DNA of 32,000 bases from Nostoc sp. PCC 7120 = FACHB-418. GTDB taxonomy: Bacteria; Cyanobacteriota; Cyanobacteriia; Cyanobacteriales; Nostocaceae. Where the stretch lies: positions 270,001-302,000 of the forward strand of contig NC_003276.1 of NCBI RefSeq assembly GCF_000009705.1, in the 5' to 3' direction. Position numbers and translations under genes: made by a program. Positions 19,786 to 21,982 of the stretch are shown here, in pieces. The notes beneath the pieces were generated by a model. That model saw only the letters and a list, made by a program, of their open reading frames with translations, ran no database searches and was not told the DNA's origin. How positions within the stretch are numbered: the stretch's first letter is position 1; each line of letters starts with the position of its first letter.

Positions 19786-20411
19786 ATGACTAATAAAACA
19801 CCTAAAACTGAATACGATTCGCCTTGGAAGCAGATGTTGCAACTGTATTTTCAGGACTTCATGCAATTCTTCTTTCCCCAAGCTCATGCTCAAATTGATT
19901 GGAGTCGTGGTTTTGTATTTCTAGATAAAGAATTGCAACAGGTAGTCCGCGATGCCGAGTTAGGAAAACGACTGGTTGACAAATTGGTGAAAATTTATCG
20001 CATTGGGGGTGAAGAATCTTGGTTGTTGATTCATGTTGAAGTTCAAAGCCAAGAAGAAGACGATTTCCCCAAACGGATGTTTGTTTACAACTATCGAATT
20101 TTCGACCGTTATGATCGCTCTGTTGCATCCTTAGCGATATTGGGAGATGACAACATTGAATGGCGACCAAATCAGTTTGGGTACGATTTGTTTGGCTGTA
20201 AGGTTGATTTTCAGTTTCCTGTAATCAAGCTGTTAGACTATTAGCAAAGGTTGTCGGAGCTAGAAGCCAGTCGTAACCCCTTTGCTACGGTCGTAATGGC
20301 TCACTTAGCGGCGGTACAAACCCGCAGTGATAGACTAGAACGTAAGCAGCAGAAGCTAGTTTTAGTTAAAAGACTGTATGAGCAAGGGTCAGGGCGAGAC
20401 GATATCATCAA
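19786..20411 (+). pseudogene. Rpn-family recombination-promoting nuclease / PD-(D/E)XK putative transposase, 5' part (in-frame TAG, then truncated by insertion)
   Basis: DSPWKQMLQLYFQDFMQFFFPQAHAQIDW...FLDKELQQVVRDAELGKRLVDKLVKIYR...LIHVEVQSQEE...RMFVYNYRIFDRY is the family signature. TAG at 20242-20244 interrupts ...VIKLLDY*QRLSELEASRNPFATVVMAHL.... Family-like sequence ends at ...GRDDII. Confidence 0.8.
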
Positions 20412-20452
20412 AAGCTCCCAGGAGACTCCTACTTGCCTAATTTACAAATACC

Positions 20453-21736
20453 CTATATGGCATAAGCGTAACCATCTTTTTTGTGAATAGTTTTACAATA
20501 TTTATGGGAGATACCTTGGATTAATCCTTGTACAGTTGAGATGTTAAAACTACCTGTGGCACGAGTGGCGATCCTACCAATATAAGTCCCAATTTTTTTA
20601 CCTTTAGTAACAACAGCTTTGACAATATCTCCAGTTTGAAATCCAAAATGAAATTTAGTTCTAGAGCAATGTCGAATAGGAAATCCATACTTATCGGTAC
20701 GACATGATTGCCTTGTACCATGACCATTGGCAGTAATTAACAATAGTCTAATACCTTTGATTTTGAGTATTGGTGTTGATGCACCAACGCAACAAGCGTC
20801 GAGCCAGTGAGATTTATTTAATCCCTGTTGGGTTCTGTTAAATTTAGTTAATCCACCAGAACCAATTTCTACTGGTAAGCCAGTAGATTTTAAAACCTCT
20901 AATAATGCAAATCGAGTTGTATTAACTGCTGCTGCATCTGCAAGTGACTTTTTAGTTAATGCCAGAATCTTCTCTAGTCTTGATTTATCTTTTTTAAGAA
21001 AATTCTTGATATCTTGAGTGCCTTTTTTAAGGTTACATTTTTCACAACTGAGTGTAAGATTTGTGATGGAGTTTGACCCACCCTTACTTTTCGGATGTAT
21101 GTGTTCAATTTGAAGCGGGACATCTTTAATCCCGCAATAAGCACATTCTCTATTCCACTTTTCAAGGAAATACTGTCGAGTTTCAAAACCAGCCAAAGTG
21201 CCTTGCTGATACTCTTTACCTTGAATATCTGGGTGGCGAATTAACTGCGTGTCAAACTTTACTAATTCTTGACTAATGGCTGTGATTGGTGCAACTTTCC
21301 TTAACCTATTTACCCAAGTTTTGATATTTTCAACTCGACTTTGCAAGCTTGGTGCTAACCATCCTTGGGGTCTGGTTCTATTGAAAAATCTGGGTTGGCG
21401 ATATCTGGTTTTTCTACTCCTTCTACTCCTACGTAATTGTCTTCTAGAAGTTAACGCATCTCGGATGGCAAATCCCCTGTGCTTTAATTCAGCAGCAAAT
21501 ACAACTTCACCATTAACATCGTTTACCAATGCTATACCTGTGTATTTTGCTCCAGGATCGAACTTTAACCTGAGTGGAGATACAGTAGCATCTGTATATG
21601 ATTCTTTCACAACAATTGTAAAAGGAAAGCGTCTAAAAACTGCTGCTTTTCCTCTCTTTAGTAATTGCCTTGCTTGTGCTGGGTGAATTGGATTTAATGA
21701 TCTTTTTTCGTTATCAATTACAAATACTTTGCACAT
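20453..21736 (-). CDS. iscB: IscB-type RNA-guided nuclease (split RuvC with inserted HNH; RRXRR/PLMP N-terminus)
   Basis: 427 aa. PLMP-like N-terminus [40 protein letters not shown]. RuvC-I [17 protein letters not shown]. Arg-rich bridge helix [20 protein letters not shown]. RuvC-II [12 protein letters not shown] CAYCG...[32 protein letters not shown]. RuvC-III [10 protein letters not shown]. C-terminal TID-like [35 protein letters not shown]. GGAGG lies 8 nt upstream of the ATG. Confidence 0.9.
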   Translation of the reverse strand: [427 protein letters not shown]

Positions 21737-21982
21737 GATATGCCTCCAATTGCTTGGGTAATGTTAGCCTAGACAATGATTTAAAGGCTTTTTACGCTAA
21801 CAGCACTGGCTTAACCCATTCAACCTGTTTAACTATTAGCCCTAGTGCTGGGAACTGGCTACGCATTCCCAGGTAAGATGACCTTAAAATCGTAGTGCGC
21901 GAAACACTTAGTCGGGTAAACTCTGGGCTTTGAAAGCCCCCACTATATTGCTTTTAGCAATCCGTGGTGGGTAGTTTACAAA
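21737..21982 (-). ncRNA. candidate omega-RNA scaffold of the IscB element (guide predicted just outside, about 21983-22000)
   Basis: The whole 246-nt gap between the element end and the iscB ATG is non-coding and dense in complementary segments. In plus coordinates: 21916-21922 with 21973-21979; 21939-21943 with 21967-21971; 21948-21951 with 21957-21960; 21925-21931 with 21933-21939; 21801-21809 with 21841-21850; 21848-21854 with 21866-21872. The position and length fit known IscB omega-RNAs. The exact ends are not determinable from sequence. Confidence 0.6.

Follow-up and report, generated by a model that had tools for sequence, protein, structure and literature searches.

What is an RNA-guided nuclease doing in the middle of a plasmid gene, and can the element that carries it still move? 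These questions are raised by a 32,000-nt stretch of Nostoc sp. PCC 7120 = FACHB-418 (contig NC_003276.1, positions 270,001 to 302,000; the whole of this stretch is called the window here, and all positions are counted within it). An earlier note, made from the letters of the DNA, had described there a stand-alone nuclease of the IscB type, an OMEGA system, on a 1.57-kb element that resembles IS200/IS605 elements and lacks the transposase gene tnpA. Our own reading, which we hold with a probability of roughly 0.9, is that the window carries a non-autonomous ISC element with IscB and a HEARO ωRNA on a large plasmid of the Nostoc/Anabaena PCC 7120 type, and that this copy has been immobilised, its nuclease and guide RNA being apparently intact.

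As a kind of system this is already known: IscB and OMEGA, the HEARO ωRNA, and the rule of insertion at N/ATGA (a slash marks a junction throughout) have all been described, and the very protein is already annotated as IscB. An identical protein is present in NCBI as BAB78361.1 and as a multispecies entry for Nostocaceae, "RNA-guided endonuclease IscB," and is found on 149 contigs. The same 90 %-identity cluster includes a 329-amino-acid protein of Nostoc sp. PCC 7120 = FACHB-418, iscB is annotated in related plasmids by the NCBI prokaryotic genome annotation pipeline (PGAP), and the databases hold at least 8,000 homologues. What is added here are the ends at the level of single nucleotides, the guide, the target-adjacent motif (TAM), a naturally occurring empty site as target, and the truncation at one end; the kind of system is unchanged.

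An IscB protein and its guide RNA

Is the protein really an IscB? The open reading frame (ORF) of 427 amino acids is present on the minus strand as described earlier, and all the motifs quoted from it occur in its translation. Its domains run in the order PLMP/RRXRR, RuvC-I (D60), arginine-rich bridge helix, RuvC-II (E157), HNH (H212), and RuvC-III (H310/D313), followed by a C-terminal part of ~105 amino acids; residues ~322-427 are conserved across the family. The Pfam profile RRXRR (PF14239) matches residues 4-179 over the full length of the model (E=1.8e-71), and HNH (PF01844) matches residues 198-240 (E=2.6e-13). The NCBIfam equivalog NF040563 (guided_IscB, "RNA-guided endonuclease IscB") scores 448.5 bits against a cut-off of 175. 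The top matches among PDB sequences are all IscBs (TbaIscB, OgeuIscB, and HfmIscB), both with the single sequence and with a 30-sequence family profile. Residues D60, E157, H212, H310, and D313 align to D61, E193, H247, H340, and D343 of OgeuIscB, the five that Kato et al. (PMC9640706) name as catalytic. These five, together with the zinc cysteines C198, C201, C231, and C234, are invariant in 30 relatives. By all of these marks the ORF is an IscB.

The earlier note thus fares well on the protein. The two profile matches it had proposed as a check were both obtained, the architecture up to RuvC-III is borne out by them together with NF040563 and the conserved catalytic residues, and the RuvC and HNH residues it took to be intact are so. 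For the small C-terminal domain that it called TAM-interaction-like, no counterpart turned up among solved structures. Its PLMP/RRXRR-type N terminus holds as a domain, which matches its profile and is the best-modelled part of the predicted structure, but the motif itself deviates: it reads SLNP (P13S) against PLNP or PLDP in the family, with P at position 13 in 28 of 30 relatives.

Structure prediction agrees with this assignment in a qualitative way. AlphaFold2 run on the single sequence gives an unusable model, with a predicted local distance difference test score (pLDDT) of 33. With 108 homologues the mean pLDDT is 49.9, and confidence is confined to the PLMP domain and the RuvC core (pLDDT 70-89), with PLMP itself at 74-89. 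The low confidence arises because the listed homologues are all at least 78 % identical, which leaves the alignment shallow. When the model is compared with the PDB by Foldseek, the top 10 matches are all cryo-electron microscopy structures of IscB or IsrB (OgeuIscB 8csz, E=6e-15), and Cas9d and other compact Cas9 structures follow lower down amid unrelated weak matches. The TM-scores are low, as expected of a poor model, and these matches are used qualitatively only. In the comparison with OgeuIscB that the earlier note had in mind, the nearest neighbours are therefore IscB and IsrB, but the C-terminal ~105 residues are modelled at pLDDT ~30.

Could the protein be something else? The earlier note had named one alternative itself, a plain HNH endonuclease (McrA-like) or an HNH protein of the group II intron type that lacks a split RuvC and happens to have a structured leader. 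Some homologues are indeed labelled "HNH endonuclease" or "5-methylcytosine-specific restriction endonuclease McrA" in the databases (some of them JGI entries), and there is a weak PDB match to the HNH region of a group II intron maturase (E=0.02). However, HNH accounts only for residues ~198-240, set between RuvC-I/II and RuvC-III with the D/E/H/D residues; the IscB equivalog is passed by a wide margin, with no reverse-transcriptase domain found by Pfam; the significant structural neighbours are only IscB, IsrB, and Cas9d; and the leader is a covarying HEARO, as described below. The Pfam, NCBIfam, PDB-profile, and Foldseek results refute this alternative, whose chances we put at practically nil.

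Equally far-fetched is a degenerate or minimal effector of type II CRISPR-Cas, similar to Cas9d, whose array would lie outside the window. What might suggest it is that the HNH region matches models of Cas9d and Cas9, though weakly and below threshold (50.7 bits vs 375 for Cas9d, 22.5 vs 100 for Cas9, TIGR01865), and that Cas9d structures appear among the lower Foldseek matches. Against it stand a length of 427 amino acids without a recognition (REC) lobe, a gene that sits inside a 1,571-bp insertion with defined transposon ends, a guide that derives from the flank, and the contents of the window. There is no CRISPR array in the window, whose only tandem repeats are coding, and no Pfam match to cas1, cas2, or any other Cas family or to a Y1 transposase (Y1_Tnp) in the 42 window ORFs covered (41 of the 47 that reach 90 amino acids, plus a 79-amino-acid fragment at 20251-20490). 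On scores, REC lobe, array, and cas genes alike, the protein falls outside type II CRISPR-Cas9, and in this window the earlier statements that array, cas1, and cas2 are missing and that the element is TnpA-less hold. A missing tnpA is the usual state of affairs, one being found near only ~1.5 % of iscB genes (Meers et al., bioRxiv 10.1101/2023.03.14.532601).

The leader of the gene appears to encode a guide RNA. The minus strand directly upstream of iscB matches the HEARO RNA from the first to the last position of the Rfam model, the one Rfam family found in the whole 32-kb window. HEARO is the ωRNA of IscB and is bounded by the right end (RE) of the element (Meers et al.). Beyond the scaffold, the non-coding leader continues to 21737, and the 243 nt that it has inside the element (21737-21979) may be set beside a family-average leader of 242 nt (Meers et al.). 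All 20 relatives that were sampled likewise have a full-length HEARO directly upstream of iscB, at 100-156 bits, and in an independent alignment of 21 leaders, 26 of the 41 consensus pairs show compensatory changes on both sides. The 246-nt structured leader that had been noticed at the ωRNA position is thereby substantiated, with 243 nt of it within the element. The minimum-free-energy (MFE) z-score of the leader is weak (-1.67) and is not used as evidence. The subterminal hairpin at the RE is conserved in the relatives, and most of those aligned have a purine-rich, GGAG-like run where the window has its Shine-Dalgarno-like sequence.

Where would the guide come from? The element opens with the first base of the scaffold, and therefore a 5' guide would be copied from the host flank. 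Its length is taken from OgeuIscB, which uses 16-17 nt (Kato et al., PMC9640706), and it may extend further 5'. The predicted natural target reads 5'-AAATCGGAATAAGTTT-ATGA-3', and an empty site at a metagenomic locus, L091, which is taken up next, is identical to the guide-side flank plus ATGA.

Boundaries of the element and the gene it interrupts

In the sense of iscB, the element starts with 5'-GTAAAC and ends with ...CTTTTG-3', and its first base is position 1 of HEARO. Two lines of evidence fix these ends. (i) Across 80 related cyanobacterial loci (protein identity 58-89 %), homology starts at window positions 21979-21981, at the same G, and the flanks upstream of it are unrelated to one another. 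(ii) Excision of 20409-21979 in silico yields a frame of 957 nt and 318 codons that is collinear with intact orthologues on plasmids. A junction scan of metagenome contigs found one uninterrupted allele, on contig Ga0209172_10002282 (locus L091). The predicted junction ...GATATCAT/AAACTTATT... occurs there without interruption: L091 reads ...GACGATATCAT/AAACTTATTCCG..., an exact match to the flanks of the window that extends over 31 guide-side and 8 TAM-side nucleotides. At the insertion point the empty allele is ...GATATCAT/AAACTT..., which places the element at N/ATGA (TCAT/ on the top strand). The ATGA falls in a pair of host isoleucine codons, taking the last base of one and the first two of the next. 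Junctions shifted by 1-3 nt were entertained because short T runs flank both ends; a start 1-3 nt upstream of GTAAAC (host codons ATC-AAC) is ruled out, the empty allele reading ATA-AAC.

How general is this target? Of the loci whose downstream end could be examined, ~56 of 69 end at /ATGA and 9 of 69 at /GTGA, with 4 unresolved. The tally is approximate, as the automatic "furthest end" heuristic overshot into A-rich flanks at ~30 loci, which were set by inspection. One of the few exceptions to the rule is L001 (about 2223-2240), where CTAA stands in place of ATGA after the element.

Judged by its ends and its target, then, the IscB element is a non-autonomous member of the IS200/IS605 superfamily ("ISC") inserted at N/ATGA in an Rpn-like plasmid gene. 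The empty allele shows a site-specific insertion without duplication of the target, in keeping with the IS200/IS605-like element of the earlier note. The length of 1.57 kb given there stands as well, while its ends (20410-21982) have to be moved by 1 and 3 nt, to 20409 and 21979. Table 1 collects the features.

Table 1. Features of the IscB element and of the gene around it, in window coordinates
Feature	Position	Strand	Details and basis
5' part of interrupted host gene ("cytosolic protein," Rpn-like)	19786..20408	+	plasmid orthologues
Target-adjacent motif ATGA	20405..20408	-	host sequence (TCAT on + strand, 5' of the left end); present in empty allele
Whole IscB/ISC element	20409..21979	-	1,571 bp; without target-site duplication; in-silico excision and empty allele
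Truncated iscB-distal end (remnant of left end)	20409..20452	-	44 nt, stop codon to boundary; keeps only right arm AAGTAGGAGTCTCCTGGGAGCTTTTG of terminal hairpin
iscB	20453..21736	-	427 amino acids plus stop; profiles, alignments, sequence
Shine-Dalgarno-like GGAGG	21743..21747	-	6 nt upstream of iscB ATG; sequence
ωRNA scaffold (HEARO RNA)	21758..21979	-	Rfam RF02033, 149.4 bits vs threshold 83, model 1-211 of 211
Subterminal hairpin, ωRNA-side end (RE, convention of Meers et al.)	21937..21971	-	CCCACCAC..ATTGC-TAAAA-GCAAT..GTGGGGG; sequence, MFE fold
Predicted ωRNA guide	21980..21995	-	5'-AAAUCGGAAUAAGUUU-3'; flank-derived; directly 5' of HEARO position 1
3' part of interrupted host gene	21980..22313	+	orthologues, empty allele

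Which gene has been split? The plus-strand ORFs at 19786-20244, 20251-20490, and 22005-22313 are pieces of one gene, which is intact on several Nostoc plasmids as a 957-nt "cytosolic protein" in the same neighbourhood; the annotation as Rpn family is that of a more distant homologue from another Nostoc plasmid. The fragments have no Pfam match and only a sub-threshold NCBIfam match to the Rpn family (E=0.018), and they were identified through the intact plasmid orthologues. The 5' part contains an in-frame TAG (20242-20244, plus strand) at a codon that stands for K or Q in four plasmid orthologues and in L091; this is secondary decay of an already disrupted gene. All public assemblies with the exact protein show it at the same locus. 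The extra TAG and this shared locus suggest that the insertion is not a fresh one.

Loss of the left end and what may remain active

Can the element still move? Its iscB-distal left end (LE) is short. Aligned with loci L086, L001, L002, L016, and L032, the tail in the window lacks ~100 nt; the relatives aligned here include Trichormus variabilis plasmid A (86 % DNA identity), Nostoc FACHB-280, and N. parmelioides. Both a stem-loop behind the iscB stop and the left arm of the terminal hairpin fall within the missing stretch. The Trichormus copy has this hairpin complete, with a perfect stem of 22 bp, CCTCCCATTCCTTTCACCGCTT...AAGCGGTGAAAGGAATGGGAGG, directly ahead of TTTTG/ATGA, whereas the window retains only ...AAGTAGGAGTCTCCTGGGAGCTTTTG/ATGA. 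The top strand of the LE folds at -3.9 kcal/mol here, vs -52 to -77 in relatives, and the tail of 44 nt is the second-shortest of 37 measured (median 83, up to 195 nt). Of the subterminal hairpins that mark both ends of an IS200/IS605 element, the present copy has the one at the RE and an incomplete one, its left arm gone, at the LE. The ancestral element clearly had both.

Two observations on these tails may be added. Between the stop codon and the terminal hairpin, many relatives share a large conserved stem-loop, TTGTGAATTG...TTTTTG(T/C)TAACACAAAAA...CAATTCAC, which spans ~75 nt right after the iscB stop in L086, L001, L002, L016, and L032 and has been lost from the window; it may act as a terminator or represent a small nested element. 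An independent relative in Nostoc spongiaeforme (L020, 4279-4320) has a 35-nt tail with only the right arm of its end hairpin, suggesting that loss of the LE is recurrent.

Recognition of subterminal hairpins by Y1 transposases is a feature of the IS608/ISDra2 mechanism. The Y1 transposases of the superfamily bind such hairpins at both ends (PMC4810608; Meers et al.). With hairpins needed at both ends and the LE arm lost, the copy is therefore probably no longer excisable, and we lean towards the view that a Y1 TnpA supplied in trans could not excise or move it. The earlier description of the nuclease as "riding a mobile element" is right about the ISC element, but the present copy has lost ~100 nt of its ωRNA-distal end and is probably immobile. 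The most fitting description is an OMEGA locus that has been immobilised, that may still be active, and that could spread only by homing or recombination.

Is there any transposition nearby? One assembly of the same replicon (CP183474.1; L087, 2792-4150) carries a 1,359-bp, TnpB-only element of the IS605 type, which encodes a 402-amino-acid protein of the OrfB_IS605/Cas12f-like TNB kind. Its insertion point is in the tail of the IscB element, 7 nt beyond the iscB stop (between window positions 20446 and 20445). The TnpB element lies 3' of TTAC and ends ...GATGTCAA, following the IS608-like TTAC/TCAA rule. Its flanks are 100 % identical to the window, and the transposition is therefore very recent. 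This shows that a Y1 transposase is active in the lineage, one that serves a different family of ends from those of the IscB element.

That recent event is among the grounds for supposing, against our reading, that the element is still fully mobilisable and that a Y1 TnpA acting in trans can make do with the 44-nt remnant of the LE. The relatives also share the ATGA target and the final ~30 nt inside the boundary, and L020, with its 35-nt tail, hints that short ends may be tolerated. We nevertheless think it unlikely. The left arm of the hairpin is absent, with the drop in folding energy just given, and Y1 transposases bind hairpins at both ends; the recent TnpB element uses TTAC...TCAA ends, not TCAT/ATGA; the exact protein is found at the same locus in every assembly that carries it; and the host gene has had time for a second inactivating mutation.

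If the element is immobile, is the nuclease locus alive? Here the contender is a silent relic, an ORF and an RNA gene left intact by chance or recency at a locus that is unexpressed or inactive and decays with its host gene. Its surroundings do look like decay (the extra stop in the host gene, a split alkB, the truncated LE), P13S alters the PLMP motif, and no promoter-like site lies upstream of the ωRNA. On the other side, the ORF is full length with all catalytic and zinc residues intact. The protein has 4 departures from columns conserved to at least 95 %, the family mean being 3 (rank 40 of 108), which is no excess over an average family member. The ωRNA scores in the upper range of its relatives (149 vs 100-156 bits), and iscB is co-oriented with the upstream MT-A70 and alkB genes, an arrangement that is favoured and supplies read-through transcription (Meers et al.). 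The ratio of nonsynonymous to synonymous substitution (dN/dS) between iscB and its relatives is 0.07-0.11. The nuclease gene shows no apparent sign of decay, and we consider the silent relic a doubtful account.

Several points weigh against the reading of an immobilised locus with an apparently intact nuclease and guide RNA. P13S lies in a motif whose mutation lowers the activity of OgeuIscB (PMC9640706). The presumed C-terminal WED and TAM-interacting (TI) region matches no solved structure, either by comparison with PDB sequences or with the family profile, a profile of the C-terminal 110 residues alone gives nothing significant among PDB sequences, and the model is poor there (residues 292-401, pLDDT ~30). 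The dN/dS values average over long branches and fall short of proving selection on the present copy after it lost its end. A promoter scan finds no sigma-70-like promoter upstream of the guide on the minus strand, and the scan of that strand for promoters and terminators turned up nothing useful; transcripts would depend on read-through out of the co-oriented MT-A70/alkB genes, or on a promoter that departs from the consensus. The loss of mobility through truncation of the LE is inferred by way of the IS608/ISDra2 mechanism. Finally, a literature search found no publication specific to the present locus or to HEARO in Nostoc/Anabaena.

How would such a locus work? The gene reads from the ωRNA-bearing RE towards the LE. 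In a working model inferred from CHARACTERISED IscBs (OgeuIscB, GstIscB), the complex of IscB and ωRNA would recognise ATGA through its C-terminal domain, ~16 nt of the guide would pair with the target, and both strands would be cut, by RuvC (D60/E157/H310/D313) and HNH (H212). The natural target would be the "empty site," either the donor joint left after excision by TnpA or an element-free allele. After the cut, recombination with an occupied copy could restore or spread the element. Might such a cycle run without TnpA altogether? A gene common on Nostocales plasmids has uninterrupted alleles to which the guide followed by ATGA corresponds (exactly in one of them, L091), and TnpA-independent action is therefore possible. 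A non-transposing IscB-ωRNA locus might then be kept functional by allele-converting homing among plasmid copies in a polyploid cell, or by the exclusion of plasmids with an empty allele, a speculation to which we give quite a small chance. Were it true, the locus would be a natural snapshot of the immobilisation step proposed to lead from an ISC transposon to Cas9.

Known relatives, uses, and the rest of the window

Where does the locus stand among described systems? The IscB/OMEGA system, with OgeuIscB and KraIscB, was reportedly set out by Altae-Tran et al. in 2021. The present protein is like OgeuIscB in domain order, catalytic residues, a size of ~400 amino acids without a REC lobe, and an ωRNA directly upstream with a 5' guide. 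It differs in sharing only ~23-26 % identity in structural alignments, in being 69 amino acids shorter, mostly at the C terminus, and in its SLNP motif, and its predicted TAM is ATGA instead of NWRRNA/NNRR. The HEARO RNA (Rfam RF02033) is said to go back to Weinberg et al. in 2009, and the leader in the window resembles it in matching at full length, on the same strand, and upstream of an HNH/IscB ORF, with a score typical of cyanobacterial relatives.

Cyanobacterial ISC elements have 5'-GT termini and target N/ATGA (Kapitonov et al. 2016, PMC4810608). Similar in build is ISC1-1_MA of Microcystis (PMC4810608), likewise non-autonomous, ~1.3-1.7 kb long, and encoding only a Cas9 homologue, with a 5'-GT terminus, insertion at N/ATGA without target duplication, and subterminal hairpins in place of inverted repeats. 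However, ISC1-1_MA encodes the HNH-less IscB1/IsrB, whereas the element in the window has the HNH-containing form and has lost one arm of a terminal hairpin. DtIsrB, whose TAM is NTGA (Hirano et al. 2022, PMC9581776), is a further OMEGA effector with a TAM of the type of which ATGA and GTGA are instances, and with the same core of PLMP, RuvC, and bridge helix. IsrB has no HNH and only nicks; the present protein has an intact HNH insertion.

The TAM of GstIscB, TTCAT, lies 5' of the left end and is ATGAA in reverse complement, and a homing model for IscB elements has been put forward (Meers et al.). The window shares with that system a HEARO ωRNA bounded by the RE, iscB towards the LE, no tnpA in cis, a TAM that coincides with the target of the transposase on the 5' side of the LE (TTCAT for GstIscB, aTCAT in the window), and a guide plus TAM that spell the donor joint or empty site. 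In the Gst system excision, cleavage, and retention have been shown experimentally, whereas the locus in the window is known from sequence, its LE is apparently defective, and the TnpA half of the cycle is probably missing.

For discovery, the locus carries little weight; its practical value is modest. The host appears to be a genetically tractable model cyanobacterium, Nostoc/Anabaena sp. PCC 7120, and the locus would lend itself, in this native and polyploid host, to studies of ωRNA expression, IscB activity, and homing. It offers a compact IscB of 427 amino acids with a simple, predicted 4-nt TAM, and its truncated end is a small but concrete example of the immobilisation of an element.

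The backbone of the window resembles large Nostoc and Trichormus plasmids; together with the nucA/nuiA-like pair described below, this suggests an origin from the large (alpha-type) plasmid of Nostoc/Anabaena sp. PCC 7120 or from a re-sequenced derivative. Just beyond the interrupted gene, an alkB-like 2OG-Fe(II) oxygenase (22357-22958, minus strand) is divided between two ORFs, 22719-22958 and 22357-22782, which overlap and differ in frame. It spans 602 nt, vs 600 nt for the intact gene on Trichormus plasmid A, and the same split appears in the gene calls of other assemblies; it looks like a frameshifted pseudogene. On the other side, an HTH_36 protein (ORF 18301-19635, minus strand) contains tandem repeats of 15 and 30 nt at 19109-19270 that encode a Gly/Pro/Ser-rich stretch (...SPNGGLPNGGSPNGGLS...). 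These are the sole notable tandem repeats in the window and are not CRISPR-like.

Further away, a DDE transposase ORF of 509 amino acids (12868-14397, minus strand) has weak Pfam matches to IS66 and MULE. The surrounding region of ~1.68 kb recurs at 93-94 % identity on several other Nostoc plasmids and is therefore likely an active or recently active insertion sequence. A convergent pair of genes, Endonuclease_NS (7568-8434, plus strand, E=6e-59) and the NuiA inhibitor (8548-8949, minus strand, E=5e-57), is the NucA/NuiA system of a sugar-non-specific nuclease and its inhibitor known from Anabaena. Finally, short ORFs at 1766-2609 (plus strand) match parts of two families, positions 11-128 of 268 in Methyltransf_19 and 1-105 of 148 in impB/mucB/samB, which suggests further gene fragments or pseudogenes.

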